Shown: positions 2,586 to 61,746 of the stretch, one piece after another
Position numbering within the stretch: position 1 is the stretch's first letter
Layout: each line of letters opens with the position of its first letter
DNA from: an uncultured bacterium
GTDB taxonomy: Bacteria > DAOPZR01
Assembly (NCBI GenBank): GCA_964637655.1
Contig: CAZWUZ010000001.1
Span: forward strand, 599 to 64,598
Length of the DNA: 64,000 nucleotides
Direction: 5' to 3'
Made by a program: the position numbers and the translations under genes
The notes under the pieces: generated by a model
The model's input: only the letters and a program-made list of their open reading frames with translations
The model's database searches: none
What the model was told of the DNA's origin: nothing

Positions 2586-2625
2586 GATTCCTCACCTCCG
2601 CGTAGCGTTCGCGCATCGCTGTTTG

Positions 2626-3386: not shown

Positions 3387-3388
3387 CG

Positions 3389-19579: not shown

Positions 19580-21121
19580 CTAATTGTCGCTCCCCTGCGA
19601 CACAACGAAGCGCCCAATAACCGGGTTGAAGACGAGCCGTTCGCGATTATTCTGATACCATGCCGCCATGGCGACACTGTCGCCCTCGATATCAACAAAT
19701 GCACGTACCAGCAGTGGCACCGCTGTGCCGTGCCCGTTTATCGATACGCTCGCTGCATCCCCCTCTTTACACCACGAGGCAATACATTCTCCCAGCGCCG
19801 CAATCATCCCGTTGCGCAATGTCAGCAGTTGCAGTTCTTCTGCGTTGCACCTGTCCTCGTGCGTCTGCTGCATGACTGCAGCAAGCATGTCATTGCGTAC
19901 ATCATGCGGCAGCAATTGCAGGGCTGCGTGCAGCATATTGTCATCTTTCCGGCTGGGGTCATACTCGAATATGGTGATTTCGTATATGCCTGTCCGATGA
20001 TTACATGGTAGTGAGCGATACCGCTGTTGCAGGCAGATCTTGAGCAGCGGATATACCGTGCTGTCCTGCAGTGCCGCTCCGGCATATAACCACTTCGGGT
20101 CGAGTTCCGGATCGTTGCGGCGCAGCATGGCGATGATTTGCGGTGTGGCATCACGTTCCCAATGGTGACCGAGTATCACATCAAGCAATTCTGGTGCACG
20201 CGGCAGGGCTGCTGCTATCCGCTCGCAATTCTGCTCGCACGCCAGCGCCGCAACCGCCTGAGTAAGTACATACCGTTTCCATGAGTTCCTTTCATTGTCT
20301 GGCCTCACAGGCAGTTTTGTCAGTTGCGCCAACAACAGGTCAACATGGACTGGCCCGACAGCATACAGCAGTTCAATAGCATGCTGCTGGCTCACACCGA
20401 ATTCATTTTCGCCATCTCCCTTGTGACTGGCTGCGATGCGGGCAACATACCGGCGATAGTCATCACGCGACGGTGTTTCCGGCAGGCCATAGGCTCTCGG
20501 CAGCGGGCGGGAAGCATCAGGGTAGAGCGTTGTATCGCTGTTGTACCATTTGAGAAACACTTCCCCGGTCATTTCATCCGCCGCTTCTCCCGCTTCGCTC
20601 GAGAGCACATACCGCCGCCCGTTTTTCACTCCCCCCAGTAATCCCACACGTTCACGCCCGATACGTTCCAGAAGCAATATGATCAGTTCATCGCCTCGAC
20701 CAAAGCGCATGCAACCACTCTGCGGCATGACGCAGTAGTTCATCGCCGTGATGTACTTCCGGTAATCGTCTGTATCCGGATGGTCGGGCAGGCGGACGCG
20801 CACAGCATCGGCATGGCGCTGTTCCTCGCTGCGCGTGTCGTACCACCAATCCGGCGCGCGAAAGGCCCAGGGATTATCAGGCTGCGTACGGTACAAATCA
20901 TCGGCATAGCCGCTCCGCACGGGCGGGATTGCCGGCTTGATTTGTGCTGAAAAGAGCGGCGCAAGTGAAACCAGAGCGATGGCGCCCAGCATAATCCCGC
21001 CAATCACCACGGCCGCTGCCAATCCGTTGCGCAGTCCGCCCGTCACCATGTCAGCCGGCGCGCTTTCCACAAGACACCGCCCGCTGCCGTCATCCGGCGG
21101 GATACTCACTTGCTCACTCAT
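19580..21121 (-). CDS. N-terminally anchored helical-repeat protein, paralog of 17015..18337
   Basis: TM helix near the N-terminus; motifs shared with the downstream paralog. Confidence 0.55.
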   Translation of the reverse strand: MSEQVSIPPDDGSGRCLVESAPADMVTGGLRNGLAAAVVIGGIMLGAIALVSLAPLFSAQIKPAIPPVRSGYADDLYRTQPDNPWAFRAPDWWYDTRSEEQRHADAVRVRLPDHPDTDDYRKYITAMNYCVMPQSGCMRFGRGDELIILLLERIGRERVGLLGGVKNGRRYVLSSEAGEAADEMTGEVFLKWYNSDTTLYPDASRPLPRAYGLPETPSRDDYRRYVARIAASHKGDGENEFGVSQQHAIELLYAVGPVHVDLLLAQLTKLPVRPDNERNSWKRYVLTQAVAALACEQNCERIAAALPRAPELLDVILGHHWERDATPQIIAMLRRNDPELDPKWLYAGAALQDSTVYPLLKICLQQRYRSLPCNHRTGIYEITIFEYDPSRKDDNMLHAALQLLPHDVRNDMLAAVMQQTHEDRCNAEELQLLTLRNGMIAALGECIASWCKEGDAASVSINGHGTAVPLLVRAFVDIEGDSVAMAAWYQNNRERLVFNPVIGRFVVSQGSDN

Positions 21122-21743
21122 TATCTGCCGTTCCTGTTGCACGACGCACGCGGTTGTTGACCTTCACCGTGCCGTTGTCGACCAGAATCTTGTCCGTCGC
21201 GCCGACCATGCCGTAGGCAGTACCGTTGACGGTCAGCGCGCCATTCTCAATGCTCACTTCGGTCGTTCCTATCGTCAGGGTATGGCAACCCATGATATGC
21301 GTGGTCATCTTCATGGCCGAGCCGGGGCGTACCGTCACGTTCCGCCTTTCGAGCGTCGCTGTCGTCTCGTAGTCCGGCTGCCGCCGCTGCTCGCTGCGCG
21401 ACAGGGCGCGCCCGCGGCGTACCTGCCCGTCAACCGAGACCACGCCGCTGTCGATGCTGATGGCCGCATTCGGCGCGAGCGTGCCGTACGACTTGTTGTT
21501 CACCGTCAGTTTGTCGTCGGCAATGCGCACGCTGATCGTGCCGCAGGTATACTCGAACGTCTTCCTGCCGTTGCTGGTTGTCTGCGCACTGCTCGTCATC
21601 GCGTTGCCGGGCGTCACCGACACAGCATGCGTCCCCATGGTGGTTGTCGAGGCCACGGGCGCGGTGTTGACGGAGCAGGTGCAGGCGGTCAGCGCCAGCA
21701 GCGACGCGAGCGCCAGCAGTATCACCGGCTTGTGCATGGTCAT
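21114..21743 (-). CDS. lipoprotein with two internal sequence repeats
   Basis: Signal peptide LLALASLLALTAC. The repeat LTVNNKSYG...VRRGRA resembles LTVNGTAYG...VRRATG. Confidence 0.5.
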   Translation of the reverse strand: MTMHKPVILLALASLLALTACTCSVNTAPVASTTTMGTHAVSVTPGNAMTSSAQTTSNGRKTFEYTCGTISVRIADDKLTVNNKSYGTLAPNAAISIDSGVVSVDGQVRRGRALSRSEQRRQPDYETTATLERRNVTVRPGSAMKMTTHIMGCHTLTIGTTEVSIENGALTVNGTAYGMVGATDKILVDNGTVKVNNRVRRATGTADNE

Positions 21744-21744
21744 G

Positions 21745-22167
21745 TCAGTTTCCTCCCGCTCGTATGAATGCCTGCAGCATGTGGTTGTACAGCCCCGCCG
21801 TCAGCCACACCAGCAGCAGGTGACCGGTAAAGTACCAGCGGTCATTGCCGCTACCGGCCCGCCACACCCTGACAACGAAATAGAGTACCGGTAGCAGCGA
21901 GTAGCAGAGCATCAGCACTACAGCCGCCAGCGCGAGTTGCGGCGAGAGCGCCGGCAGGTCCTGCGGATACGCGGCAGCAGCAACCAGCGCAAGATACGGG
22001 CCGCGCAACCCGATGTGCAAAGCCGTCAGGATATCCCCCGGCACAACCGGGTTTTCCTGCACTGCCAGCAACAGGGCACAGGCCGCAACAAACGCCGCCA
22101 GGTTGCCGATCTCGATGACAAATGCCGCACCGCCGCCAAGCCAGGCCGCCAGCCGTCGCATGGTCAC
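21745..22167 (-). CDS. membrane protein (140 aa)
   Basis: Four TM helices; 4-nt overlap at both ends. Confidence 0.45.
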   Translation of the reverse strand: MTMRRLAAWLGGGAAFVIEIGNLAAFVAACALLLAVQENPVVPGDILTALHIGLRGPYLALVAAAAYPQDLPALSPQLALAAVVLMLCYSLLPVLYFVVRVWRAGSGNDRWYFTGHLLLVWLTAGLYNHMLQAFIRAGGN

Positions 22168-24872
22168 AGCCCCTCCGTCAGTGCCGGGCTGAGTCGCGCC
22201 GCGGGATGGCGCCAGGTGCCCGGAAAGAGTTTGCTGCCGCGCACGTAGGCGGCGCGGGCATTCGTGCTGTCACCCATATGCTCGTAGGTCAGCCCGATAT
22301 TCATCCACGTGTAGACGATGCTCGGGTCGTAGCGCCAGGCCAGGTCGAACATCGCCAGTGCCTCCGCATGCCGCCCGAGCGTGTCGAGCGCGCTCCCGTA
22401 ATAGTTGTAGTCACGCCCGTTGCGGTCCATCAGCAGCATGCGGTCGAGCACCGGCAGCGCCTCGGCCGGTCGCCCGACGTTGTAGATGAGCAGGCGGGTG
22501 TAGTCGCGCAGGGCGACGATATCGTCAGGGTCATAGAGCAGCGCGCGGCTGCTGGTCGCCAGCGCCGCCTCGTCATCGCCCGACAATTCCTCCGCTTCGC
22601 GGCGCAGTCCGTGCATCCAGAGCATGAAGCCGGGATACGCTCCGCGCACCTGGCGGAACTGCAGGGCCGCGCGCACCGCCTCGCGCGTTTCGCGGCGTTC
22701 TTTGAGTCTGGCATGCGCCAGCGCCCGGTAGGCATGCACCAGCGCGACGTCGGGATTGACCACCAGCGCGTGCCGGTAATGCGTGAGCGACGCCCGATGG
22801 CGGCCGCGCTCCTTGGCGGCCAGTCCGAGCCCGAAATGCGCCAGCCAGCAGCCGCTATCGACTGCCAGCGCCTTGGCATACTCGTTCTCCGCCCGTTCGT
22901 AGTTGTGCTTGACGGTGCTGTAATAGTCGCCGAGCATGACGTAGGGATAGGGCGAGGCGGTCGTTTCCGCCAGGCATTCCTCGGCCAGTTGCTTCCGCTC
23001 GCCCGTGCGATGTTCCGCGTAGAGCCGGCAGAGGCGCAGTTTCGCCGCCAGCGAGCCGTGCGCACCGATGGCGGCGTCCAGGTACTCGCGGGCGGTGAAG
23101 TCATCGTCGCGGGCAATGCAGGCATCGGCGCGCGCGAGCAGTTCGGACTCGGGCAGCGCCGCCAACGCCGCCGCGCGCTCTGCCTCCACCCGCGCCACCG
23201 TTTCGCGCCCGACCAGCGACGCGATCATTTCGACAAACACGCCAGCCGTGTCCTGCATCGGCGTATGGTAGACGCTCATCGTTGACATCACCCTGCCGTC
23301 GCGACCGATGGCCAAATAGCATGGCGTCGTGGCGCTCGGCGAATAGAGGCGGTACTTCCGGTAGAACTCCGGTTCCCAACCGGTATAATCGGTGAGGAAC
23401 GGGTAGGGAAGCGGATTCTGCCCGAGGTACTCTTCCGTGATGCGCCGGTCGACTTCCGGTGCCATGACCACCACCCGCAGTCCCGCGTCGGCATAGCGGC
23501 GCTGCAGTTCCGCCAGCGCGCCGAGATACATGCGGTCCCACGCGATCCAGGTCGAGGCCATGACGAGCAGCGTCGGCGCCCCGTGGAATTCATCCGTGCT
23601 GTATGTGCGCCCGCTGCGCGGGTCACGCATACGGAATTCCGGCATCGGGCCGCCCACGAGATGATGCCCCTTCCACCCCCACGCCAGCCGCACGTCATAG
23701 CCGACCAGCCCGTTGTACGTTTCCGCGTCCGGCGCGAGCGGCATGGCCGTCGCCTCTTCGGTCAGCGGCAGGTCGGTGCGCTGGTTCTCCAGATGCTCCG
23801 TGTAGTACCGGCTCCGGTCAGGCGCGTAGGTGTCGAGCCGCCGCACGGTAAATCGCCGCAACTGCGTCAGGGCGCGGTCAGTGGTCACCGTATACTCGCC
23901 ATCACCATACCCGAAATAGGCGCCGGTGAAACGGAAGACGATCGTGCTGTCACCCACCGTAATGCGCTGCAGGTCGGCACGACGCACCCGGCACTGGTCA
24001 TCGCTGATTTTGCCGGTAAGCAGCCCGAGCACTAAACTCGGCCCGTAGGTCCCCCCCTCGACCGAGCGCGGCGGCAGCGATTCATACCAGCGCAGCGGCG
24101 CCGACCAGACGAGCGTCTGCGTGTCGCTGAAGCGCACGCTGAGCCCGTCGGAGAAATAGGGCACCAGGTGCGTCACGCCGTTATAATGGAAAACACGATG
24201 ACGGTTCTGGCAGTCACTCTCAAAGATGCGCGACTCGTACAGGAGTTTGCCAAAGAATTGCGGCGGCGTGCGGTAAGCCGCGCAGACCGCAGCCAGCCGG
24301 TCGAGGCAGTGCTGCTGCTGCTCCGCATCGGTGATGGTGTTGCGGTCGGACGGCACGCGCCGCTCCAGCGCGTAGCGCCCGGCCAGCGCCACGACAAGCA
24401 GGCCGATCCCCATGATCAGCGCCAGCAGGCGCGCGAGGCGCGGCTGCAGCCGCCCGCGCCGCGGCGGCGGCCCGACATAGCGCCGCGCCAGTTCCTCCGG
24501 CGTGCCGAGCGCCGTCAGCACCGCCGCGATCAGTTCCGGCGGGTACTCGCGCTCCGCCGGGAGCGGCAGCGCGCTCTCCGCCGCCCGTGCCGCCGCCTTC
24601 GCCGCGCGCACTGCGGCCAAATCGGTCACCTTCGCCGCTGCATCGGCTCGTGCCGCCGACTGCGCCGCCCGCGCCGCTGACGTTGCGGCATGCGCCGCCG
24701 CAGATGCCGCAAGGAGTTCCCCGCTCGGCGCCATCCCCTCGGCCAGCCGCGCGAGGATGTGGTCCTCGAGTTCGAGGACGAGGTCGTCCCGTTCCGTCTC
24801 GCTCAGCCCGTGCAGTTGCGCCCGGAATGCCGCGAGGTACTCGCGAACGAGTGGATTATGCCTGCTTGGCAT
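22164..24872 (-). CDS. PadR-associated membrane sensor: DUF1700/HAAS-like N-terminus, Ala-rich linker, TM, periplasmic domain, degenerate redoxin-like domain, C-terminal TPR
   Basis: N-terminus REYLAAFRAQLHGLSETERDDLVLELEDHI has the DUF1700 pattern. Segment LLVMASTWIAWDRMYL...PCYLAIGRDGRV resembles a TlpA/redoxin fold without the CxxC pair. About 350 aa of TPR follow. 17-nt overlap with the PadR stop. Confidence 0.65.
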   Translation of the reverse strand: MPSRHNPLVREYLAAFRAQLHGLSETERDDLVLELEDHILARLAEGMAPSGELLAASAAAHAATSAARAAQSAARADAAAKVTDLAAVRAAKAAARAAESALPLPAEREYPPELIAAVLTALGTPEELARRYVGPPPRRGRLQPRLARLLALIMGIGLLVVALAGRYALERRVPSDRNTITDAEQQQHCLDRLAAVCAAYRTPPQFFGKLLYESRIFESDCQNRHRVFHYNGVTHLVPYFSDGLSVRFSDTQTLVWSAPLRWYESLPPRSVEGGTYGPSLVLGLLTGKISDDQCRVRRADLQRITVGDSTIVFRFTGAYFGYGDGEYTVTTDRALTQLRRFTVRRLDTYAPDRSRYYTEHLENQRTDLPLTEEATAMPLAPDAETYNGLVGYDVRLAWGWKGHHLVGGPMPEFRMRDPRSGRTYSTDEFHGAPTLLVMASTWIAWDRMYLGALAELQRRYADAGLRVVVMAPEVDRRITEEYLGQNPLPYPFLTDYTGWEPEFYRKYRLYSPSATTPCYLAIGRDGRVMSTMSVYHTPMQDTAGVFVEMIASLVGRETVARVEAERAAALAALPESELLARADACIARDDDFTAREYLDAAIGAHGSLAAKLRLCRLYAEHRTGERKQLAEECLAETTASPYPYVMLGDYYSTVKHNYERAENEYAKALAVDSGCWLAHFGLGLAAKERGRHRASLTHYRHALVVNPDVALVHAYRALAHARLKERRETREAVRAALQFRQVRGAYPGFMLWMHGLRREAEELSGDDEAALATSSRALLYDPDDIVALRDYTRLLIYNVGRPAEALPVLDRMLLMDRNGRDYNYYGSALDTLGRHAEALAMFDLAWRYDPSIVYTWMNIGLTYEHMGDSTNARAAYVRGSKLFPGTWRHPAARLSPALTEGL

Positions 24873-25227
24873 TCGCCCGGGAGCCCTTCGCCCCGCGCTC
24901 GCTGATCACCGTGTCGATGGTCGACGCATAGTCGCGCCAGTGCTTGTGCATCCCCGCCACCAGTTCCCGCCCCTGCTTCGTCAGCGAGTAGTACTTGCGC
25001 GGATGCCCCGTGCCGGCGTTATGATCCCACTTGGCAATCACCGCGCCGTCCGTGCGCAGCCGGTTGAGCAGCGGGTAGAGCGTCCCTTCCGCCAGTTCGA
25101 TGCCGTACGCTTCCTTGAGCAGGTTGATCAGCTCGAGGCCGTACTTCTCCCCGTCCCGCAGCACGGAGAGCACCAGCATGTCCAGCGTCCCCTTCCGTAT
25201 CTGCGCCATCCAGTCATTCAGTTCCAT
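24856..25227 (-). CDS. padR: PadR family transcriptional regulator
   Basis: MELNDWMAQIRKGTLDMLVLSVL...YGLELIN...GTLYPLLNRL is a winged-helix PadR signature. RBS GAAGGAGG precedes the ATG. Confidence 0.9.
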   Translation of the reverse strand: MELNDWMAQIRKGTLDMLVLSVLRDGEKYGLELINLLKEAYGIELAEGTLYPLLNRLRTDGAVIAKWDHNAGTGHPRKYYSLTKQGRELVAGMHKHWRDYASTIDTVISERGAKGSRANAKQA

Positions 25228-25333
25228 CGTCGCCTCCTTCGCGTGTTTTTCATCATGTGCACGGTGCAGTCTGTCGTTTCTGCCTAAATCCTGCGACTAT
25301 TACGCTTCATTGCCTATGGCAACAGAAGATTGT

Positions 25334-25894
25334 TTACGGTACTCGCTCTCCGTCAGCATCCACCGAGAGTTCACTGGCATAGCGCCAGGCGGCGATGCCG
25401 ATATGCGCTGCTGCCAGCCCCGAGAGTCCCGCAGCCAGCAACAGCGGGAGTTCATTCAGGGCAAGCAGGGGGCGTTGAATATCGGGACCGACCGGATTGA
25501 AACGCATTATTGTGTCCGGCAGCGGCTTGGCGAATATCGTACCGAGCAACGCCATGAAGGCAACCAGCAGCAGTGCTGCGAGCATCCCACCAGCCGCATA
25601 GAAGCGCCATTTCGGCCAGTCGCAAGCAAGCCCGCGCCTGATTGCCGCGGTCAGCCAGGCCGAAACAATAAACGACGGAATGAACGAGATACATGCCGTG
25701 AGTATCGCGAATAGGAAGGGGTGCAGATTATCGCCCGGATAAAATACCAGCGTATGCCACGACAAATAGGCCGCCGTCAGTACGGCCATGCACCCCACAG
25801 CGGCAAAGTTGGTCAGCGACCATACATAGAGAAAGCCGCGCTTCCGTATGGTGCCGCAGCAGCCGCTCATTGCCCCGCTCCCGCGGCCCTGCAT
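25334..25894 (-). CDS. polytopic membrane protein (186 aa)
   Basis: Five hydrophobic helices. First gene downstream of the conserved promoter at about 26000-26028. Confidence 0.5.
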   Translation of the reverse strand: MQGRGSGAMSGCCGTIRKRGFLYVWSLTNFAAVGCMAVLTAAYLSWHTLVFYPGDNLHPFLFAILTACISFIPSFIVSAWLTAAIRRGLACDWPKWRFYAAGGMLAALLLVAFMALLGTIFAKPLPDTIMRFNPVGPDIQRPLLALNELPLLLAAGLSGLAAAHIGIAAWRYASELSVDADGERVP

Positions 25895-25999
25895 CCGGCA
25901 TCACGCATCGCGTCCATGCCCAGTGCGCTGCTCATGCCCCTCCCCTTTGTCCCGGCGCCGTCATGCCCGCCCTGCCGTCCCGCTGTGTATCGTTATGTC

Positions 26000-26028
26000 A
26001 TAGTACATTGTGACACTATGTATGTCAA
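26000..26028 (-). promoter_or_regulatory. sigma70-like promoter TTGACA-N17-TACTAT with conserved core TTGACATACATAG
   Basis: Read on the minus strand. The 13-bp core is identical to the sites at 31908, 41453 and 49656. This copy also carries TGACA-N7-TGTCA dyad symmetry. Confidence 0.45.
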
Positions 26029-26149
26029 TACGACGTGTTCCGCCGCTGAGGGCGTTATTGGGCTCGTTGATTGATTGTCATTTGGTATTGCTATACGCGA
26101 TTACAGTATCTTTTGGTAATCCCGGTAGGGTCCGCATTTGACTCTGTGA

Positions 26150-26632
26150 TTATTGTCGCTTCTTTCGACAGCGTAGCACTCGCGCCCGGCGGCGCCGGGG
26201 CATACGCGCCGGCTGTCCATGCTGCCCGGTTGCCTGCGTGAATATGGCGGGCGTGACGATGCGTATGCCCCGCCACGCCACCAGTTCCAGCAGATGCGCA
26301 TCACCGGATACTATGCAATCGGCATCGGCCGCGCCAGCACATTCAAGTATCTTATTGTCATCCGGATCGGCGTCGATTGCTTTGACGCACTGTGTCGCGT
26401 TGACCACGGTGAACACATCATGCAATTCCCGGACAAACATCTGCGCCTGCCGCGCGGACAACTTGAACTTCGGCCGCTGCAGCACGTCGCGGATTTCGTC
26501 AAGTATTTGCAACGAGATAAATCCCTGAACGGATCCGTCAATCACCCGTTCGAGCACACGCCGCGGCTCGCCGCCAAACAGCAATGCGGAAATAATGACA
26601 TTCGCATCGAGCACGACACGCCGCGCGCGCAT
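26150..26632 (-). CDS. PIN-domain toxin (VapC-like)
   Basis: VVLDANVIISAL and DADCIVSGDAHLL acidic motifs. The start overlaps the stop of the RHH gene. Confidence 0.7.
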   Translation of the reverse strand: MRARRVVLDANVIISALLFGGEPRRVLERVIDGSVQGFISLQILDEIRDVLQRPKFKLSARQAQMFVRELHDVFTVVNATQCVKAIDADPDDNKILECAGAADADCIVSGDAHLLELVAWRGIRIVTPAIFTQATGQHGQPARMPRRRRARVLRCRKKRQ

Positions 26633-26880
26633 CAGCGCGCGGCCTTGCGCCTGCGGTGCGCCGTGATTTCCCGGTCTACATCGATCGGCTGCAATTTCCC
26701 GCGCTGGGCGATATCCTGCCCCAGGGCGAACAGGTCGGACCAGCGTTCACGTCGCTGCAGGTAAGCCCGCGCCGCTTCGCGCAGGAACTCCGAGCGGCTG
26801 CGCGCCTCGCTCCGTGCCACCCGGTCGATGTCTTTGAGCAATCCGTCCTGAAACGCGATATTCACGGTAACCGTGCGCAT
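26632..26880 (-). CDS. ribbon-helix-helix (CopG-like) antitoxin
   Basis: 82 aa; N-terminal beta-strand plus helices (VTVNIAFQDGLLKDIDRVARSEARSRSEFLREAARAYL). Confidence 0.65.
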   Translation of the reverse strand: MRTVTVNIAFQDGLLKDIDRVARSEARSRSEFLREAARAYLQRRERWSDLFALGQDIAQRGKLQPIDVDREITAHRRRKAAR

Positions 26881-26897
26881 GTTCCACCTCGCCTGCG

Positions 26898-26929
26898 AAC
26901 AATATACAATTATTGTATATTGTTGTCAA
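26898..26929 (-). promoter_or_regulatory. perfect 13-bp inverted repeat AACAATATACAAT-t-ATTGTATATTGTT overlapping TTGACA-N17-TATATT promoter of the RHH/PIN operon
   Basis: Palindrome read directly from the sequence. -35 and -10 are on the minus strand 20-50 nt upstream of the RHH start. Confidence 0.5.
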
Positions 26930-27023
26930 CGCCCCCCCCTGTCGGCACTGTTCTACGCGCCGCGGCGGCGCGACGTTGGCCACCGTATCTCGTGGTATTG
27001 ATCCAAATGTGCAGTCCAGCTAT

Positions 27024-27548
27024 TTAGTCGACTGCGTGCCCAAAGTCATTCCAATATGACGGTTTTACCGTCACCAGTACTATTCTGAAATACTTATTCT
27101 GTTCGTCATACGGCCAGACTGCCAGCATCACACTCGACCGGTCATCGAGGTCATTCAGGTTTCGATATTCATAGCAGTTCCCGGTGAGAAAATAACTTTC
27201 TGGCAGAAATTCCGTACAGGTACTCGCGCGACGGGAAGTGTACCCCGCAGCGTTTATGGCTTTTTCGATATGACTGACAATCTCATCACAATCACGCCAT
27301 CCATCGACTGCCGTGTCTGCAGTTGCACATTTTCGCAATACATAATAGCAGCCAGACTCATCTTCCGCTGTAAGTGTCGTATGGCTGATATCCCACCAGG
27401 CTAATTCATGCGACAGCGGAACATGGACATCAATGTACGATGGTGATAGCGCCACCGACAATCCGCCATAAGCTACCATCAGCAATATTGTGGTAGCGAA
27501 TACTGCAACGCAACCATAAACATATACACGTTTCGTCGAGTTTGTCAT
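27024..27548 (-). CDS. secreted Cys-containing protein (174 aa) in the AT-richer island
   Basis: Signal-anchor VYVYGCVAVFATTILLMVAYG. Local GC is visibly lower than the flanks. Confidence 0.45.
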   Translation of the reverse strand: MTNSTKRVYVYGCVAVFATTILLMVAYGGLSVALSPSYIDVHVPLSHELAWWDISHTTLTAEDESGCYYVLRKCATADTAVDGWRDCDEIVSHIEKAINAAGYTSRRASTCTEFLPESYFLTGNCYEYRNLNDLDDRSSVMLAVWPYDEQNKYFRIVLVTVKPSYWNDFGHAVD

Positions 27549-27728
27549 GATTCATCCCGCCCATAATGGCGTATGAATGTCAGAGATGCAATTCCGGTTT
27601 GGTCACGCGTATTCATGCCATCACCTTTATGCCACCGATGAGCGTTCTTCGTTGAGCCGCACTGGCAGCGATGCGCAGTAGCGCGGCTGGTTTTCATCGG
27701 ATTTTCATCCTGACACCACTGCTAATTT

Positions 27729-28184
27729 TCACCCGCTTTGACACCAAGCGAGCAAATAATTAAGTAATATTACTGCAACAATCAGGCAACAGCAAATTGC
27801 CTGATAGACTTCTGTTTTTCGAGTGACCAGATACGGGGGTGATCCTTCCGAATATATCAACTCGTCGTTATGCTGTACCGTTAGAGACCGTATTGTAAGC
27901 CATGGCCACACCCTGACCTGAATCACGAATTTGTCATTATTGTGGACTAATTCGAACCGAGGGACGAACCACAGTCTAGAGCGTGTGACAATCTTGTCAT
28001 TTTCAACAGCAACTGTTTCTGTGCCACGACCGCGACCATTGTAAGTTACCAGCACCGGTCCGTTCGCGGTAGGAACCTCGATAACTCGTTTGAGCCAACT
28101 ACGGCTTTTCAGCATTGAATTCATTGTCGCTCCTTTGTCATCACCATCTAATTGCACCGAATGATTATCGCCCTGCGGGCGCAA
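27729..28184 (-). CDS. hypothetical protein with C-terminal TM (151 aa)
   Basis: ORF in the AT-richer island with a C-terminal hydrophobic helix. Confidence 0.4.
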   Translation of the reverse strand: MRPQGDNHSVQLDGDDKGATMNSMLKSRSWLKRVIEVPTANGPVLVTYNGRGRGTETVAVENDKIVTRSRLWFVPRFELVHNNDKFVIQVRVWPWLTIRSLTVQHNDELIYSEGSPPYLVTRKTEVYQAICCCLIVAVILLNYLLAWCQSG

Positions 28185-28230
28185 CTATTCGCGCCCGCAG
28201 CGGTGCGATGCTGGCCATTGTGTGCTCCAT

Positions 28231-28716
28231 TTACCTGACCTTGTGTAGATACTTCAGCAACGCAATAAGCAATAGTATTCCACCGGGCACTAACAGGCAG
28301 CCAAACGCTGCATACATCACCTCTCTGGCATTGCGCGGTCGATGCGGCTTTGTGGAAGGAATTCTCTTCAATACAACCTTCGGTTCTTCCCCTGAGTGTT
28401 CGGTCGGAAAGTCATCTGCACTCAATACCTGGCTCACACCAAATGCCCATACCTTCAATTGCAGCAGCATATGTCGCTGATTCTGGTCGAGACAGTCAAT
28501 CACGACGAGCGAGTATTCCGTCTTGATCCCATCTTCATCGAACAGCGGTCCAACCCGGCACCGTGAAACCACATACCCATGTTTCCGGCAATATCTCATG
28601 GCATACGCCACGTAACATCGTTCGAGCCAACCATGGGTAAAGACAAGGAGAGGTAATGCCAGAATCCCGACAACTATGGCAGTGATGATTTCGATGATGC
28701 TCTTGTCCGTCATCAT
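28231..28716 (-). CDS. membrane protein (161 aa)
   Basis: N- and C-terminal TM helices. 4-nt overlap with the stop of the sensor gene upstream. Confidence 0.45.
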   Translation of the reverse strand: MMTDKSIIEIITAIVVGILALPLLVFTHGWLERCYVAYAMRYCRKHGYVVSRCRVGPLFDEDGIKTEYSLVVIDCLDQNQRHMLLQLKVWAFGVSQVLSADDFPTEHSGEEPKVVLKRIPSTKPHRPRNAREVMYAAFGCLLVPGGILLLIALLKYLHKVR

Positions 28717-31463
28717 TGCATTCCAGACGTACTGGTCAACGCCCCGGACAACGCGCCAATTTCTTCGTCCGTCGCGCCGCCCCAGAACTCCGGGAAGCGC
28801 GCGCGCGCTGTCTGCCAGGCATTGCGGGCAGCGACGTGGTCGCCGCGGCGGGCGTGCAGCAGCCCGATGGCAACCTGCGCCGTGTGGTTGCCCGGATCGA
28901 GACGCAGCACCTCGTCGAATTTCGCCATCGCCTCATCCGTGCGCCCGAGCGCTGCCAATGCCCATGCATAGTGATACAGGTCGATATCGTTGTAATCATA
29001 GCGCAGCAACTGCTCGAGCACCGGCAGCGCCTCGGCCGGACGCCGCACCTGGTAGAGCAGCGTGCGGGCAAGCCCGCGCAATTTGCCGCGATTGCCCGGA
29101 TCGTAGCGGAGCGACAGGCGGTTCCGCTCCAGCGCGCGCTCATAATCACCGAGACGGTCGTACCGGTCGACTTCCTCGCCGTAGCCCTCCACCTGTAGCA
29201 GCGCGTCCGACGCCCCGCGCAGCCCCCGGAACAACGTCACCTGCCGCAGCGCCTCCTGCAGTTCCGCCTCGCGCCTGAGATCGCGCAGCGACACGGACAG
29301 CTGCTGCCAGACGAAACTGTTCTCCGGCACTATCTGCAGCGCCTGGCGGTATGCTTCCACCGCTTCGGTATACCGGCTGCGGGCGGCATAACTCTGCCCC
29401 TGCTTGAGGTACGCCTGCCAGCAGCGCGGATCGAGTTCGAGTGCCCGCGCGTACTCGCGCATGGCGCGCCCGTGGTTGCGCTTGTCCGTACGGTAGAAAT
29501 CGCCCAGCATCAGGTGGGGGTAGGGCGAGGTCGTCGTCTCCGCGAGGCACTCCTCCGCCAGCGCCTTCCCCTCCTCGTTGCGGTACTCGGTATAGAGCCG
29601 GCAGAGCCGCAGTTTCGCCGCCAGCGACCGGTGGCTGTCGATGGCCGCCTGCAGGTATTCCTTGCCGGTGAAGTCGTCCTCGCGCGCGAAGCAGGCCTCC
29701 GCCCGCGCCAGCAGTTCCGCCTCCGGCAGCGACGCCAGCGATTGTGCCCGCTCCCGCTCGATGCGCTGCACGGTCGCCTCGCCGAGCACGGGTACCAGCA
29801 GTGCCGCCAGGTCATTGACGCTGTCACTGATGGGCGAATAGTAGCGGCTCCCCGCCGCGGCCACCCGTCCGTCAGCCGCTACCGCGAGAAATACCGGGTC
29901 CATGTCGCATGGCGCGTAGAACCGCCCGGCGGCAAAGTGCGGCGCCTGCCAGCCCGTGAAATCGGAAAGCAGCGGGTAGGGGAGCGGATGCTTCGCGAGG
30001 AACGCGTCGGTAATGCGCCGTTCCACCTCCGGGGCGAGCACCACGATGCGCAGGCCGGTCGCCGCGTAGCGCTCCTGCAGCGCCGCAAAGGCGGCAAGAT
30101 AGAGTCGGTCCCACGGTATCCAGGTGGCCAGCACGGCCACCAGCGCCGGGCGGCCGCGCAGGTCGGCAGACGTATGAAGTATGCCGGTGCGCACCTCGGG
30201 CGCACTGAACGGCACCATCGGCCTGCCAACCAGGGCCTGCCCCTTCCAGCCCGACGGCTGGTGCAGGTTGTACCCGTCCTGCCCGCGGTGCAGGCGCGCG
30301 TCAGGCGGAAGCGGCAGCGCCAGTGCCTCCGCGGTCAGCGGCAGGTCGGTGCGTTCCCCGCTGATATGTTCGCAGGCGAGATGGCTGCGGGTATAGCCCG
30401 GCTCGTCAAGCCGGCGGACGGTGAACGAACGGAGGCGCGGCTGCTCCGCGTCGAGCACCACCTCGTACTCGCCGTCGCCGCAGCCGAAGTAGGCGCCGGT
30501 GAACGTGTAGGTGACGCTGTCATGACGGCGCACGATCTTCCGCACATCGCGGTCAAAGACCCGGCACTGGTCCTCGCTGATCTTCCCGGTGAGCAGGCCG
30601 AGGAGCAAACTCGGGCCGTAGGTGCTCCCCTCGATATCGCGCGGTGGCAGAACCGCGTACTCGCGCAGCACCGGCTGCCAGACCACGGTCTGCGTGTCGG
30701 TGTACCTGACGCTGACCGCATCGGCATAGAGCAGCGGCACAAGACGCGTGATGCCGTCGGCATGCAGCACCCGGTAGTACTGCCGGCATTCACGCCCGAA
30801 GATCCGCGACTGCCCGTGGAGTATTCCGTAGTACGGGCTGCGCTGCCGGTAGGCACCACAAACCGCAGCAAGCCGGTCGAGCAGTTTCTGCCGTTCTGCG
30901 TCTTCCGTCACGCTGATACCCTGCTGCAGCGCGCGCCATTCCTGCGTCGATCGCGCCGCCAGCGCCACGGCCAGCAACCCGGCACACATGAGCACGGTGA
31001 GCACGCGCGCCATACGCGGCGGCAGTTGCCAGTGCTGCTCTTCTTCAGGCGGTGCGCTCTCTTCCGGTGCCTCGTCATAGCGGCGCGCCAGCTCCTCCGG
31101 CGTGCCCAACGCGGCCAGCACCGCCTGCACCGCGGCAGCCGTGCGGGCGGCTGGTGCCGCCACCGCGCTTTCCGCCGCCAGCGCCGCGCGCTGCGCGCGC
31201 ACCGCCGCCAGGTCAGTCACCTTGGCCGCCGCATCGGCCTGCGCCGCCGACTGCGCCGCCCGCGCCGCCGAGGTTGCGGCATGCGCCGCCGCCGAGGCCG
31301 CCAGCACCTCGCCCGTCGGCACCCCGTCTTCCGCGAGCCGCGTCAGGATATGGTCCTCGAGTTCGAGAACGAGGTCGTTCTTCTCGTTCTCCGACATCCC
31401 GCGCAGTTGCGCGCGGAACGCCGCGAGGTACCCGGTGATTATTTCGCTATGCCTGTCTGGCAT
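28713..31463 (-). CDS. second PadR-associated membrane sensor (DUF1700/HAAS-like, TM, degenerate redoxin-like, TPR); paralog of 22164..24872
   Basis: 916 aa. Same architecture and about 80 % N-terminal identity to the first copy. The redoxin-like segment LVAVLATWIPWDRLYL also lacks cysteines. Confidence 0.65.
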   Translation of the reverse strand: MPDRHSEIITGYLAAFRAQLRGMSENEKNDLVLELEDHILTRLAEDGVPTGEVLAASAAAHAATSAARAAQSAAQADAAAKVTDLAAVRAQRAALAAESAVAAPAARTAAAVQAVLAALGTPEELARRYDEAPEESAPPEEEQHWQLPPRMARVLTVLMCAGLLAVALAARSTQEWRALQQGISVTEDAERQKLLDRLAAVCGAYRQRSPYYGILHGQSRIFGRECRQYYRVLHADGITRLVPLLYADAVSVRYTDTQTVVWQPVLREYAVLPPRDIEGSTYGPSLLLGLLTGKISEDQCRVFDRDVRKIVRRHDSVTYTFTGAYFGCGDGEYEVVLDAEQPRLRSFTVRRLDEPGYTRSHLACEHISGERTDLPLTAEALALPLPPDARLHRGQDGYNLHQPSGWKGQALVGRPMVPFSAPEVRTGILHTSADLRGRPALVAVLATWIPWDRLYLAAFAALQERYAATGLRIVVLAPEVERRITDAFLAKHPLPYPLLSDFTGWQAPHFAAGRFYAPCDMDPVFLAVAADGRVAAAGSRYYSPISDSVNDLAALLVPVLGEATVQRIERERAQSLASLPEAELLARAEACFAREDDFTGKEYLQAAIDSHRSLAAKLRLCRLYTEYRNEEGKALAEECLAETTTSPYPHLMLGDFYRTDKRNHGRAMREYARALELDPRCWQAYLKQGQSYAARSRYTEAVEAYRQALQIVPENSFVWQQLSVSLRDLRREAELQEALRQVTLFRGLRGASDALLQVEGYGEEVDRYDRLGDYERALERNRLSLRYDPGNRGKLRGLARTLLYQVRRPAEALPVLEQLLRYDYNDIDLYHYAWALAALGRTDEAMAKFDEVLRLDPGNHTAQVAIGLLHARRGDHVAARNAWQTARARFPEFWGGATDEEIGALSGALTSTSGMQ

Positions 31464-31818
31464 TCGCCCGGGCGCCCTTCGCCCCGCGTTCGCTGATCAC
31501 CGCATCGATCGTCGACACATAATCACGCCAGTGTTTGTGCATCCCCGCCACCAGTTCCCGCCCCTGCTTCGTCAGCGAGTAGTACTTGCGCGGATGCCCC
31601 GTGCCGGCGTTATGATCCCACTTGGCAATCACCGCGCCGTCCGTGCGCAGCCGGTTGAGCAGCGGGTAGAGCGTCCCTTCCGCCAGTTCGATGCCGTACG
31701 CTTCCTTGAGCAGGTTGATCAGCTCGAGGCCGTACTTCTCCCCGTCCCGCAGCACGGAGAGCACCAGCATGTCCAGCGTCCCCTTCCGTATCTGCGCCAT
31801 CCAGTCATTCAGTTCCAT
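31447..31818 (-). CDS. padR: PadR family transcriptional regulator (second copy; start at MELNDW)
   Basis: Protein almost identical to 24856..25227. RBS GAAGGAGG precedes the ATG at 31818. The listed ORF extends 5' to 31920 but the promoter lies inside that extension. Confidence 0.9.
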   Translation of the reverse strand: MELNDWMAQIRKGTLDMLVLSVLRDGEKYGLELINLLKEAYGIELAEGTLYPLLNRLRTDGAVIAKWDHNAGTGHPRKYYSLTKQGRELVAGMHKHWRDYVSTIDAVISERGAKGARANARQA

Positions 31819-31891
31819 TGTTGCCTCCTTCTCGTTTGGTTGTTTTACGGGCAGCGCAACCGCCGTTACGTTCGACAGAGAGTATGCAGCG

Positions 31892-31920
31892 ATATTACCT
31901 TGTGTCGCTATGTATGTCAA
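31892..31920 (-). promoter_or_regulatory. sigma70-like promoter TTGACA-N17-TAATAT with conserved core TTGACATACATAG
   Basis: About 75 nt upstream of the PadR2 ATG; flanked by the 8-bp inverted repeat GCGATATT/AATATCGC. Confidence 0.5.
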
Positions 31921-32039: not shown

Positions 32040-32648
32040 TCAGACTGCAACCAGCATCACTGGGACAAGGACAAACACCAGAAGCATCAGGAGCAGCAGC
32101 ACGACAGCCGCCGTCGCAGCCCAGAAGTAATGGCGCATACCTTCCGCATTCCTGAGTTTCCATGCGGTCAGGGCACCCAGGAGCAGCAGCACCACGGCAA
32201 CGGCGATGGCCACGATATTGTACCGCTCATACCTGCGTACCGGCGGGATATATTCCATTGCGCCGAGCGATGCTATGTAGCGGATGGTTTCCGCCTGATC
32301 GTTCTGCGCATCATGGACTGAGCAAATGGTATAATCGCTCCCGTTGCTGGTATAAGCATAGTCATTGCCCCAAGGATCGCGGGTGATCGTCGCGACGTAC
32401 GGCCCGCTCCACCCGGGCGCCGTATCAGTCAGCAGCTGGCCGAGCGTGCCGGGAAAAAGCGCGTCGGACACGTCAACCCGGTACAACGCCAGTGCGGAAT
32501 TGAATGCGCCAATATCGCCACTGGCAGCGCCGTTCTTTGATCTTTCAACGGAACAGGGGATCTTCGGCAGGGCAATTGCAGCAAATATCCCGATGAGAAT
32601 GACCGCAACACCCCAGCGCTCCCATCGATTCCTCCTGCACTTTGTCAT
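32040..32648 (-). CDS. GspG-like pilin-domain protein, single N-terminal helix and two C-terminal TM helices
   Basis: ALALYRVDVSDALFPGTLGQLLTDTAPGWSGPYVATITRDPWGNDYAYTSNGSDYTI matches the T2SS major pseudopilin globular-domain pattern. No G-F-T-L-I-E leader. ORF extends to 32723. Confidence 0.55.
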   Translation of the reverse strand: MTKCRRNRWERWGVAVILIGIFAAIALPKIPCSVERSKNGAASGDIGAFNSALALYRVDVSDALFPGTLGQLLTDTAPGWSGPYVATITRDPWGNDYAYTSNGSDYTICSVHDAQNDQAETIRYIASLGAMEYIPPVRRYERYNIVAIAVAVVLLLLGALTAWKLRNAEGMRHYFWAATAAVVLLLLMLLVFVLVPVMLVAV

Positions 32649-32664
32649 GCCGGAGTTACCCGCG

Positions 32665-33306
32665 TCAGCGCTCACCGGGATCACCGTTCGCAGCATCATG
32701 GTGGCTTCTTTGACGGCGCACATCCAATTCCGACAGCATCATCTGGCACGCGCTGCCGATATCGCGAGGGATTTCCAGAAACGACGAACCGGGATTGTGC
32801 GCCGGCACCGGCGGCGATCCCGCTCCCGCCTGTTCAAGGAACGGACGCACAATTTCTCCCATGGCAAGTATGCAACTGTATGCCCGGCCCTGGGTCTCCT
32901 GAACAACCAACCGGCTCAGCAACAGGGGCACGACCCGGGTATCCGGCTCGCACATGCTAAAGGTAAATACCTGTCCGCCATTGGCCAGGCGTGTCTTATA
33001 ATCCCTGTCGATTTCCACTCGCCAACCGTCAGGCAATTGCCCTGTATTGAGTTCGAGATCCGTAGTGGCGTCGAGGATAAAACGCGCCGACTTGGCAGTA
33101 TAGTCAGTGTCCGATAGTGAACAGCTGTACAGATACAGTTGCCCGATATCTGTGTCCGGCGGGATACAGTCGCGGACGACCGTAATCTGTGGCGGTGGCT
33201 CCGGCGTTGGGCCGCATGGGGACTCAAGGTACGAGAGAGTTGCGGCAAACACCACTGTCAGCAGCAGCAGCATGGACAGCACGGCAAGCCGTATTCGCGT
33301 ATCCAT
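32665..33306 (-). CDS. secreted protein (213 aa)
   Basis: Signal peptide LAVLSMLLLLTVVFAA; several Cys. Confidence 0.45.
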   Translation of the reverse strand: MDTRIRLAVLSMLLLLTVVFAATLSYLESPCGPTPEPPPQITVVRDCIPPDTDIGQLYLYSCSLSDTDYTAKSARFILDATTDLELNTGQLPDGWRVEIDRDYKTRLANGGQVFTFSMCEPDTRVVPLLLSRLVVQETQGRAYSCILAMGEIVRPFLEQAGAGSPPVPAHNPGSSFLEIPRDIGSACQMMLSELDVRRQRSHHDAANGDPGER

Positions 33307-34710: not shown

Positions 34711-35793
34711 TCATGCCTTGCGCCCCCCGACAAACTCGCTGTCATGCGCATGCAGCATGGCAGTATCGTAGGTGATTTCGCCCTTTTCGTATAATTCCTT
34801 CAGCGCATGATCGAGCGTCCACATGCCATGCCGACGCCCGGAAATAATGTCATTGACGATATTGTGGGTGGCCCCTTCGCGGATCTGCTTGCGGATAGCA
34901 GGGGTGTTGACCAGCACCTCAGTGGCCAGCACCAACCCGCTGCCATCCGCACGCGGCAGCAGCGTCTGGCAGATGATCAGGCTGAGCACCGACGCCAGCT
35001 GCGCCTGCACGGCGGGCTGCTGATGCGCGGGGTAGCTCGCGACGATACGTTCGAGCGCTGCCACGGTGTCATTGGTATGCAGCGTGCCAATGACGAGATG
35101 TCCGGTTTCCGCGGCGATGAGCGCGGTGCTGATGGTCTCCAGGTCGCGCATCTCACCGATCCCGATGATATCGGGGTCCTGGCGGAGGATATGCCGCAGG
35201 GCCGCGGAAAACGACGGGGTGTCCGACCCCACTTCCTGATGGATCACCAGCGAACGGATATGCGCATGCACATACTCGATGGGGTCCTCGACGAGAATGA
35301 TTTTACAGCGCTGCTCCTGGTTGATGCGATGCACGCAGGCGTTCAGCGTTGTAGTCTTTCCCGCACCCGTCTGCCCGGCGATGAGAATGAGCCCGTCGGG
35401 TTTCATGATGGCTTCTTCCAGCACCGCGGGCAGGCCCAGTTCGGCAAAACTGCGCATCAGCGGCGGGATGATACGGATGGCGGCACCGCGGATGCCACGT
35501 TCAAGGTAGGCGGTGACGCGGAAGCGGCCAAGTTCGGGCAGGTCGACGGTGATGCCCAGCGCGCCCTCACTGGCCAGGCGCTGCGCGCGCTGCTCACCCA
35601 CCAGCTCACCCACCAGGGCATTGCAGTCCTCCTCCGGTAATGCGTCGCAGTCAGTGAGAATCAGTTCGCCATTGATGCGCAGGACGGGTGCCAGTCCGCA
35701 GACCAGATGGATGTCAGACGCCTTCGCCGCCACCGCGCGCGCAAGAATATCGTGTACCGAGCTCATACAACCCTCCGGCGCGACCATGGCCAA
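34711..35793 (-). CDS. pilT: type IV pilus retraction ATPase PilT (start may be the Met at 35763)
   Basis: Walker A GQTGAGKTTT, Asp box DPDIIGIGEMRD, His box LVIGTLHTNDT, PilT-type AIRKQIREG. Confidence 0.85.
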   Translation of the reverse strand: MAMVAPEGCMSSVHDILARAVAAKASDIHLVCGLAPVLRINGELILTDCDALPEEDCNALVGELVGEQRAQRLASEGALGITVDLPELGRFRVTAYLERGIRGAAIRIIPPLMRSFAELGLPAVLEEAIMKPDGLILIAGQTGAGKTTTLNACVHRINQEQRCKIILVEDPIEYVHAHIRSLVIHQEVGSDTPSFSAALRHILRQDPDIIGIGEMRDLETISTALIAAETGHLVIGTLHTNDTVAALERIVASYPAHQQPAVQAQLASVLSLIICQTLLPRADGSGLVLATEVLVNTPAIRKQIREGATHNIVNDIISGRRHGMWTLDHALKELYEKGEITYDTAMLHAHDSEFVGGRKA

Positions 35794-40794: not shown

Positions 40795-40863
40795 TTATTC
40801 CCTGTTCTCCTTCACGCGCACGATGTTCCGCTGTATCTGCGCCATCCAGTCATTCAGTTCCAT
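40795..40863 (-). pseudogene. PadR gene remnant (22-aa N-terminal fragment MELNDWMAQIQRNIVRVKENRE)
   Basis: About 30 nt including the RBS GGAGGCAATAATGGAACTGAATGACTGGATGGCGCAGAT match the two intact padR starts. The reading frame ends after 22 codons. Confidence 0.55.
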
Positions 40864-41398
40864 TATTGCCTCCACCCTGCCGGGGCTGTGCCCCTGTTGT
40901 CGTTCCGTGCTCCCCATTCCCGGCCGCCGGCATTGGCGACGTCGCGGGAGTATCATTTTCGCTGTAATAGAGCGTGAAAGCGAGCGCCGGGTCCACACCG
41001 AGCCGCCGGCGCTCACGGGTAAACTGCGCCTGGGTGAACGGCCCGTGCACCCTTTCGTCTGCCACGTTCACGAGGTTGTATTCCGTCACCGCATAGTTGA
41101 TATTGCTGCCGCCGTCCGACGGATGACGTTTGGCGATGACCCAGGTACTATCGCATCCGGCAGCATATATCGTGCTGCTGACGAGTATCCCCACCATGTT
41201 TTCACTCTCACGGCGGCCAATCGAGAGTTGGCGAACATCATCGGCGGCGCTCAGTTCGAGCCTGCCCGCCAGCGGGTAATCACTCGCCGGAAAGCCGCCG
41301 CAGGCGGTCAGCAACGCCAGTGCACACAGCGCCAGCAGCATAACTGCGACCGCTTCCGCCATCCGTTCACGCGCCATCTGTGCCATCTTCACCGCCAT
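40850..41398 (-). CDS. lipoprotein (likely start MAVKMAQ...LLTACGG)
   Basis: Lipobox ALLTACGG; beta-rich body; Gly/Asn/Thr-rich C-terminus. Confidence 0.5.
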   Translation of the reverse strand: MAVKMAQMARERMAEAVAVMLLALCALALLTACGGFPASDYPLAGRLELSAADDVRQLSIGRRESENMVGILVSSTIYAAGCDSTWVIAKRHPSDGGSNINYAVTEYNLVNVADERVHGPFTQAQFTRERRRLGVDPALAFTLYYSENDTPATSPMPAAGNGEHGTTTGAQPRQGGGNNGTE

Positions 41399-41436: not shown

Positions 41437-41465
41437 TGTATACTATGTGTCGCTATGTATGTCAA
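41437..41465 (-). promoter_or_regulatory. sigma70-like promoter TTGACA-N17-TATACA with conserved core TTGACATACATAG
   Basis: Third copy of the 13-bp core, immediately upstream of the lipoprotein gene. Confidence 0.45.
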
Positions 41466-49639: not shown

Positions 49640-49668
49640 AATATACCACGTTTTCCTATGTATGTCAA
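49640..49668 (-). promoter_or_regulatory. sigma70-like promoter TTGACA-N17-TATATT with conserved core TTGACATACATAG
   Basis: Fourth copy of the 13-bp core, directly upstream of the giant gene. Confidence 0.45.
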
Positions 49669-61717: not shown

Positions 61718-61746
61718 TTATTACATAGTGTTGCTATGCTCGTCAA
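61718..61746 (-). promoter_or_regulatory. diverged copy of the conserved promoter (TTGACG-AGCATAGCAACACTATG-TAATAA)
   Basis: Same -35/spacer architecture and CATAGC..ACAC core as the four identical sites. About 10 nt upstream of the 542-aa gene. Confidence 0.3.

Follow-up and report, generated by a model that had tools for sequence, protein, structure and literature searches.

Two PadR-HAAS gene pairs encoding putative envelope sensors with a LolA-like barrel, a thioredoxin fold lacking its catalytic cysteines and a TPR region in an uncultured bacterium

Two-gene signalling systems made of a HAAS protein (PF22564 / DUF1700) and a PadR-like winged helix-turn-helix (wHTH) regulator were described computationally in mSystems in 2024 (PMC11237479), where the three-helix fold of HAAS, the GxP groove in it and the strict pairing with PadR were defined. 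HAAS domains occur only beside PadR and were read as signal transducers (PMC11237479). The published HAAS fusions are mostly multi-pass membrane proteins (PspC, LiaF/LiaI, FtsX, FtsW/RodA, VanZ) or intracellular ones (Toastrack, pentapeptide) (PMC11237479). Two pairs of this kind were identified in a stretch of 64,000 nucleotides (nt) from an uncultured bacterium (GTDB lineage Bacteria; DAOPZR01; GenBank assembly GCA_964637655.1, contig CAZWUZ010000001.1, positions 599 to 64,598 of the forward strand), which is called the window below and gives all coordinates their numbering. Like the described systems, the two modules possess an N-terminal HAAS domain with a GxP helix, an adjacent standalone short PadR, a membrane anchor and a fused variable module. 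They are probably (at about 60%) two paralogous PadR-HAAS transmembrane signalling dyads which sense an envelope ligand, and not redox enzymes.

Layout and domain architecture of the modules

Both modules are encoded on the minus strand. The first one consists of padR1 (24856..25227) and the gene of sensor 1 (22164-24872, 902 amino acids (aa)), and the second of padR2 (31447..31818) and the gene of sensor 2 (28713-31463, 916 aa), which has the architecture of sensor 1. Each padR product is 123 aa long, the short single-domain form of this winged-helix regulator (about 110-125 aa), and matched PF03551 with 68.7 and 67.9 bits, respectively (cutoff 27). The ATG at 31818 was identified as the start of padR2, since it is preceded by the ribosome-binding site GAAGGAGG, identical to that of padR1. 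The original prediction, made from the letters of the stretch, had the two modules right and placed the upper end of the second at 31920, where the TTG is in fact the first triplet of the -35 hexamer TTGACA. In both modules the last 17 nt of padR lie within the sensor gene, as in the one close homolog outside the contig (locus L001), and padR is translationally coupled to the sensor gene.

A Pfam HAAS match was found at the N-terminus of each sensor (36.9 and 39.0 bits, cutoff 27), in agreement with the HAAS/DUF1700-type domain already proposed. In sensor 1 it covered residues 11-48 and only profile positions 1-38 of 55, while the distant homolog P0008 (44 bits) covered positions 1-54. Helices 1-2 lie at residues 1-48 (24729..24872), followed by an Ala-rich stretch at residues 49-110 (24543..24728), and the third helix (24474..24542) carries the GxP motif L-G123-T-P125-EEL at residues 122-128. 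In the clade of the window the GxP motif thus comes after some 60 Ala-rich residues. The residues G123, T124 and P125 are invariant within the clade, and G-x-P was retained in the distant homologs P0004, P0005, P0007 and P0008. Because these four homologs have no Ala-rich stretch, with helices 2 and 3 contiguous, the segment is a clade-specific insert of about 60 aa, new here, which splits HAAS before the GxP helix, and not a linker behind the domain as had been supposed.

A single hydrophobic segment at residues 143-167 (24372..24446), the sole Kyte-Doolittle window above 1.6, coincided with a helix at residues 144-170 in the AlphaFold2 (AF2) model. Each sensor is therefore a single-pass membrane protein, as proposed before, with HAAS probably in the cytoplasm and the rest of the protein probably outside it.

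The ectodomain was modelled with AF2 from a family alignment of eight sequences (residues 166-553), giving a predicted local distance difference test score (pLDDT) of 82.2 and a predicted template-modelling score (pTM) of 0.69. A full-length model from three sequences (pLDDT 54.8) was poor outside the C-terminal tetratricopeptide repeat (TPR) region and was used for helix positions only. Foldseek matched the ectodomain model to LolA (E 2.5e-9, TM-score to the target 0.64-0.69) and to DsbE (E 1.4e-9, TM-score 0.82-0.85), and no solved PDB chain spanned both the barrel half and the thioredoxin (Trx) half. The membrane-proximal domain (residues about 183-365, 23778..24326; about 30351-30902 in sensor 2) is in the model a LolA/RseB-like open antiparallel beta-barrel with an N-terminal helix. 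The periplasmic region of about 300 aa announced in the original prediction is thus present behind the membrane segment, and the barrel in it had been overlooked. By sequence this region had no Pfam match (E <= 1) between the membrane segment and the Trx domain, LolA, LolA_like, MucB_RseB and DUF4367 included, and no PDB match among the 60 best of 82 matches at E <= 10. The barrel cysteines C197, C221 and C294 are specific to the clade and not conserved beyond it.

The next domain (residues 405-553, 23214..23660; about 29787-30233 in sensor 2) is a Trx fold of the TlpA/DsbE/ResA type without catalytic cysteines. When the family profile was compared with PDB sequences, the Trx-fold matches were 3hdc (E 1.9e-9), ResA (2.4e-8), DsbE/CcmG (6e-6) and TlpA (1.3e-5), which agrees with the thioredoxin-like fold expected beforehand. 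The Pfam scores of the window proteins themselves were slightly under the cutoffs for Redoxin and AhpC-TSA (24.9 against 26.6 and 24.7 against 26), and three homologs, P0007, P0004 and P0005, exceeded the cutoff for AhpC-TSA or Redoxin (45.9, 41.5 and 37.2 bits). In the HMMER alignment, TWIAWD of sensor 1 (residues 441-446, 23535..23552) and TWIPWD of sensor 2 (residues 447-452, 30108-30125) stood opposite the W-C-x-x-C of DsbE/CcmG and of a Geobacter thioredoxin (WASWCPYC, WATWCPTC). With T-W-I-A-W-D-R aligned to S/T-W-C-P-x-C-R, the first cysteine is changed to Ile and the second to Asp. Both were replaced in all six family members covering the site ([IVG]-x-x-[DHS]), the variants being W-I-A-W-D, W-I-P-W-D and W-V-P-H-D, and in distant members W-V-P-Q-H, W-V-P-W-H and W-G-P-W-S; so a classical thiol-disulfide enzyme is excluded on sequence grounds. 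The cis-Pro loop (P517) was retained in the homologs. The description of this domain as cysteine-less holds for the catalytic pair and not strictly for the whole domain, since one non-conserved Cys, C518 in sensor 1 and C519 in sensor 2, lies close to the cis-Pro loop. No CxxC occurred anywhere in the ectodomain of the sensors.

The rest of each protein is a TPR region of about 350 aa, as had been recognised. In sensor 1 it occupies residues 554-902 (22167..23213, including C615 and C633), and in sensor 2 positions 28719-29786. Several TPR Pfam families exceeded their cutoffs from about residue 550 to the end in both sensors, and the region was modelled by AF2 as helical pairs (pLDDT 70-92).

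Conserved pairing, gene conversion and a shared promoter box

The family is rare. The two window proteins and one protein from a metagenome-assembled genome (MAG) were the sole matches of a word-index search in 5.8 billion clusters, and an exhaustive HMMER profile search over 1.84 billion representatives at 50% identity located the barrel-plus-Trx region in no more than six clusters (P0002 and P0004-P0008). Another 520 proteins or so matched the Trx part alone, and the nearest ones inspected (P0010, P0011) carry an intact WCxxC. P0009, a giant repeat protein of 3398 aa with 23 matched stretches, was rejected as a relative because its score is a sum of weak repeat matches. A scan of genome contigs gave no member beyond the same related MAG.

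The architecture is nevertheless conserved at 28-30% identity in other lineages, and a padR gene lies immediately upstream of the sensor gene, overlapping it, in all six family members with readable upstream DNA. The overlap measures 11-25 nt (the window twice, L001, L005, L006-8, L053 and L054).

The two sensors share 50% identity over their full length, and the module DNAs align at about 72% identity, in sharp difference from the padR products, which have 120 of 123 residues in common. This near-identity had been noticed before, and what had been missed is a perfectly identical tract of 284 nt starting exactly at the padR ATG (24944..25227 in copy 1 and 31535..31818 in copy 2, both on the minus strand). 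Synonymous divergence (pS) was 0.077 for padR against 0.52 for the sensors, identity fell off gradually through HAAS and the Ala-rich region, and the latter was 83% identical between the window copies and about 50% identical to the MAG ortholog P0002. For these reasons the padR copies bear the signature of gene conversion, by which PadR residues 1-94, with the whole wHTH in them, are identical in both. For the sensors the ratio of nonsynonymous to synonymous divergence (dN/dS) was about 0.4-0.5 in every domain, which points to purifying selection on both copies while their ectodomains diverged. Both sensors probably serve the same PadR species and the same operator, and with one homogenised PadR for the two of them, two diverged inputs would converge on one regulon.

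The relatedness to P0002 (L001, 10001-12730) was mosaic. The TPR C-terminus of P0002 was 70% identical to that of sensor 1 and 36% to that of sensor 2, and its Trx domain was 57% identical to sensor 2 and 47% to sensor 1, hinting that paralogs have recombined in the past.

A 26-bp palindromic box, ATACAT-N9-ATGTAT, spans the -35 to -10 region of five window promoters, all of them on the minus strand. Box 1 (TTGACATACATAGTGTCACAATGTACTAT, 26000..26028, 43.6 bits) lies upstream of a 186-aa open reading frame (ORF; 25334-25894) which precedes padR1. Box 2 (TTGACATACATAGCGACACAAGGTAATAT, 31892..31920, 40.4 bits) is the promoter of padR2 and sensor 2 and is conserved with the padR promoter of L001. 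Box 3 (41437..41465, 40.0 bits) lies upstream of a 195-aa ORF and of radical SAM and AAA ATPase genes, box 4 (49640..49668, 20.6 bits) upstream of a 2186-aa beta-helix protein, and the degenerate box 5 (61718..61746, 19.1 bits) upstream of a 542-aa ORF (60073-61701). The scores come from a weight matrix built on metagenome sites, for which the maximum over 20 shuffles was 6.5 bits. The 13-mer TTGACATACATAG occurred four times exactly in the window, each time on the minus strand, with about 0.002 occurrences expected by chance. A conserved promoter core had been part of the original prediction; it is present, and its palindrome, common to many PadR operons and to three further window promoters, had gone unnoticed.

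The metagenomes were scanned with the first 20 bases of the box (TTGACATRCATAGNGNCACA), its left two-thirds, and 43 loci were obtained, about as many as such a pattern should give by chance. Directly downstream of the box in 23 of these, all on unrelated contigs, starts a PadR gene with 29-43% identity to those of the window (tblastn matches beginning some 25-80 nt behind the first base of the box). In L051 as well a padR (product 87% identical) follows the box, but at a distance of about 1.4 kb. The consensus over 21 distinct sequences from the 23 PadR-linked sites was gcTTGACATACATAGCGnCACAATGtAT. Its last six positions, absent from the search pattern, were conserved in these sites, the flanks were not, and these six positions complete the inverted repeat. 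Since the right half-site is conserved next to PadR genes though it was not searched for, the box is taken as a candidate PadR operator, at which PadR would probably repress by promoter occlusion. Where the contig extends past a box-linked padR, a membrane protein with a perm_prefix_1/HAAS-like N-terminus follows. A simple inverted-repeat search over three padR upstream regions gave no common palindrome, and it took the comparison with metagenomes to reveal the candidate operator.

In the related MAG the box was present at padR only. A general housekeeping promoter was considered for the box and rejected, because the other sigma70-like promoters of L001 and the toxin-antitoxin promoter of the window have no box.

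In L020, L022, L047 and other box loci from soil and freshwater metagenomes, the HAAS-like proteins behind padR carry Clp_N repeats or Cytochrom_C_asm (CcsB/CcmC-like) membrane domains, and look like more modules of this dyad kind, for output or sensing, that are as yet undescribed. In the distant clade (P0004, P0005) another conserved promoter, TTGCAAAATAATCATATCCATGATACAAT, was found (about 60 nt upstream of padR in L006-L008; 1725-1755 in L054). It holds an ATCAT-N4-ATGAT palindrome in its spacer and is identical across contigs whose sensors belong to different 50%-identity clusters, and this palindrome is a candidate operator for the PadR of that clade.

Neighbourhood of the modules

Between the two modules lies an island of low GC content (25895-28712, GC 0.53 against 0.67-0.68 for the modules), which looks like an insertion into a former tandem duplication. 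It contains a pair of PIN_3 toxin and ribbon-helix-helix (RHH) antitoxin genes (26150-26880) with its own palindromic promoter (26901-26929), and also three small ORFs without family match. The last 4 nt of each sensor gene also begin a small membrane-protein ORF, of 140 aa at 21745-22167 (-) and of 161 aa at 28231-28716 (-). The two show no relation to each other and match no family; the 161-aa one lies within the island.

Just upstream of module 2, a pseudopilin of the G type of the type II secretion system (T2SS-G; 32040-32723 (-)) and a PilT-like ATPase (34711-35793 (-)) were identified. The best non-self matches of the PilT were about 53% identical, and the few organism-named ones came from Planctomycetota, Armatimonadota and Desulfobacterales MAGs.

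The 2186-aa protein directly behind box 4 (43068-49628 (-)) contains repeated Beta_helix/NosD modules and a C-terminal FlgD_ig-like domain, and may belong to the PadR regulon. The box 3 unit has, where its 195-aa ORF ends, a relic of a padR 5' end, a 22-codon mini-ORF (40795-40863 (-), MELNDWMAQIQRNIVRVKENRE and a stop) with a padR-type ribosome-binding site, which is 92.7% identical to the padR1 start over 41 nt (40833-40873). The same relic follows a homologous ORF in L051. In the latter (1-3700, Ga0116170_10033089), padR is followed only by a HAAS stub of 101 aa and then directly by a homolog of the window lipoprotein gene 21114-21743, and box 3 and the homolog of the 195-aa ORF lie upstream of padR. 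It seems that the sensor was deleted here, with a rearrangement between copies or relics of padR. TPR proteins and ORFs that match no family abound throughout the window.

Functional interpretation and comparison with known systems

In the mechanism that would best explain these features, a PadR dimer represses through ATACAT-N9-ATGTAT at its own promoters and at least two or three others in the window, so that the regulon would include the units of boxes 3-5. The ectodomain would bind an envelope ligand, the LolA-like barrel a lipid or a lipoprotein acyl moiety, and the dead Trx groove together with TPR a peptide or protein. The signal would then pass through the transmembrane helix to the GxP groove of HAAS, which would hold or release PadR and so alter repression; the direction of control is our inference. 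Since a LolA/RseB-like barrel suits a lipidic ligand and a dead Trx groove with TPR a peptide or protein, surveillance of the envelope would be the task. That the ligand is a lipid or a lipoprotein is a tentative detail of this scheme, well short of even odds.

The original prediction had also taken the proteins for PadR-coupled sensors and not redox enzymes. The second half is supported by the loss of the catalytic cysteines, and the coupling fits the published model (PMC11237479) and the invariable overlap of padR with the sensor gene; that the large protein senses instead of acting is something we infer.

Several points weigh against the signalling interpretation. The contact between HAAS and PadR is itself a published prediction (PMC11237479), and the poor full-length model (pLDDT 54.8) says nothing on domain packing or on the geometry of HAAS. 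The topology is deduced from one transmembrane helix and from the known location of the homologous domains. A LolA-like fold is no proof of lipid binding, such folds being also protein-binding partners (GerS paper). Four of the five window boxes have a weaker right half-site, with 4 matches of 6 in boxes 2-4, and the box holds the canonical PadR tetramers in swapped order (ACAT...ATGT), the canonical arrangement being ATGT-N8-10-ACAT (PMC3506622). Finally, no neighbour gene was conserved between the window and the related MAG, so that the context does not define a regulon; the two-gene dyad is therefore the conserved unit.

Rather improbable, though the best of the alternatives, is that the large protein is itself the effector, a membrane-anchored periplasmic holdase or assembly factor. 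The barrel would handle lipoproteins or lipids, the dead Trx domain and TPR would hold unfolded clients much like the Trx-TPR chaperedoxin CnoX/YbbN, PadR would regulate its own synthesis and HAAS would only report occupancy. Such a domain set is typical of client-binding proteins, the sensor gene is co-transcribed and translationally coupled with the gene of its own repressor, and in Listeria PadR operons the co-encoded membrane proteins are repressed cargo (PMC6624303). Against it, HAAS is found only beside PadR and was interpreted as a signal transducer (PMC11237479), and two diverged ectodomains with one homogenised PadR fit better with a diversification of inputs.

It is unlikely that the sensors report the redox state of the periplasm through reversible disulfides of non-classical cysteines, either C615/C633 of the TPR region or C197/C221/C294 of the barrel. 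The domain of thiol-disulfide oxidoreductase ancestry may hint at this, as may the pair C615 and C633 (motif LRLC...E[ES]CL in the first TPR helices; 22974-22976 and 23028-23030, residues 621 and 639 in sensor 2). The pair was kept in all full-length members, including P0004 and P0007 with only 28-30% identity, and it lies on adjacent helices predicted by AF2 (608-621, 627-636). It may form a structural or regulatory disulfide, but for a conserved Cys pair outside the cytoplasm the structural role is the simplest reading, while the barrel cysteines are not conserved beyond the clade and the ectodomain has no CxxC at all.

Still less likely is a sensor of cytochrome c maturation, in which the dead CcmG/ResA-like domain and CcmI/CycH-like TPR bind apocytochrome c or haem-handling partners without reducing them. 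CcmG/DsbE and ResA are among the closest sequence relatives of the Trx domain, and some box-linked PadR partners from the metagenomes are the HAAS-like fusions to Cytochrom_C_asm. TPR_CcmH_CycH was matched as well, but with 13-20 bits far under the cutoff of 42, and TPR families cross-match. Moreover, the substrates of TlpA-like domains are diverse, ccm or ccs genes were not identified beside the modules, and the LolA-like barrel would be left unexplained.

That one or both modules are decaying, functionless duplicates, at which the HAAS stub of the close relative L051 (a sensor can evidently be lost) and the padR relic at 40795-40863 might hint, is highly improbable with both sensor ORFs intact over more than 900 codons, dN/dS of about 0.4-0.5 in every domain and the architecture kept at 28-30% identity in other lineages.

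As for the signalling dyads, HAAS-PadR pairs were only recently proposed from comparative genomics as an alternative to two-component systems and have almost no experimental characterisation. This locus gives handles on them, namely a defined candidate operator common across phyla and a well-modelled soluble ectodomain with three recognisable binding modules. Its natural arrangement of two sensors and one regulator predicts cross-talk. It would also add a bacterial Trx fold re-used without its chemistry as a binding module, and a LolA-like barrel directly fused to a transcription-control protein. If sensing of lipids or lipoproteins is true, surveillance of the Lol/RseB type would be linked to a repressor-based output in an uncultured deep lineage.

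Among known systems, the promoter/operator box gcTTGACATACATAGCGnCACAATGTAT is shared with pairs of TIGR03433 PadR and perm_prefix_1 proteins (NF038403) of Acidobacteria-/Verrucomicrobia-like soil bacteria. As in the window, padR is followed there by a gene with a HAAS-like N-terminus, but the PadRs are only 29-43% identical and the partners carry Clp_N or Cytochrom_C_asm. The window PadR scored 69.1 bits against TIGR03433 padR_acidobact, under the NCBIfam cutoff of 101.8, which indicates a related clade only.

The Trx domain is of the same TlpA-like subtype as the oxidoreductases TlpA, DsbE (CcmG) and ResA, from which it differs in the replaced catalytic cysteines (Ile/Val and Asp, with His/Ser in distant members) and in its place between two other domains of a regulator-coupled protein. 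A redox-impaired Trx fold combined with TPR is also known from the chaperedoxin CnoX/YbbN, whose Trx domain has no canonical CxxC and which binds clients; that protein is cytoplasmic and soluble, belongs to the classical Trx subtype and has no coupled regulator. Foldseek did not return it among the structural matches of the ectodomain.

LolA, LolB and RseB (MucB) bind lipids and lipoproteins, and RseB is the periplasmic sensor partner of the anti-sigma factor RseA. The barrel of the window shares their open-barrel fold, with a sequence similarity which is undetectable (5-11% identity, no Pfam match). Unlike RseB, it is covalently fused to the transducer, and it would act on a PadR repressor instead of a sigma factor; neither the modules nor their neighbours had any Pfam match to a sigma or anti-sigma factor. 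The logic thus resembles the envelope-stress sensing of RseB/RseA-sigmaE, with a repressor replacing the sigma factor. A more speculative extension, which we regard as doubtful, is a self-contained envelope-stress pathway rebuilding that logic without sigma factor or proteolysis. In it the barrel would capture a mislocalised lipoprotein or lipid, the CcmG-like groove and TPR would clamp a client, and the split HAAS would relay the signal to the repressor on a promoter-spanning palindrome. Occupancy would turn on a regulon with the 2186-aa beta-helix protein, taken as a surface protein, and the radical-SAM/AAA operon, and ongoing gene conversion would tie the two sensors to one repressor.

Compared with the HAAS-PadR systems published so far, the window sensors cross the membrane once and carry a 730-aa ectodomain made up of a LolA-like barrel, a dead Trx domain and TPR, and in the window clade HAAS is split by the 60-aa Ala-rich insert. 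Since the published fusions carry mainly multi-pass or intracellular modules, the single-pass sensor with a three-part ectodomain is a new architecture of a known system and not a categorically new one.

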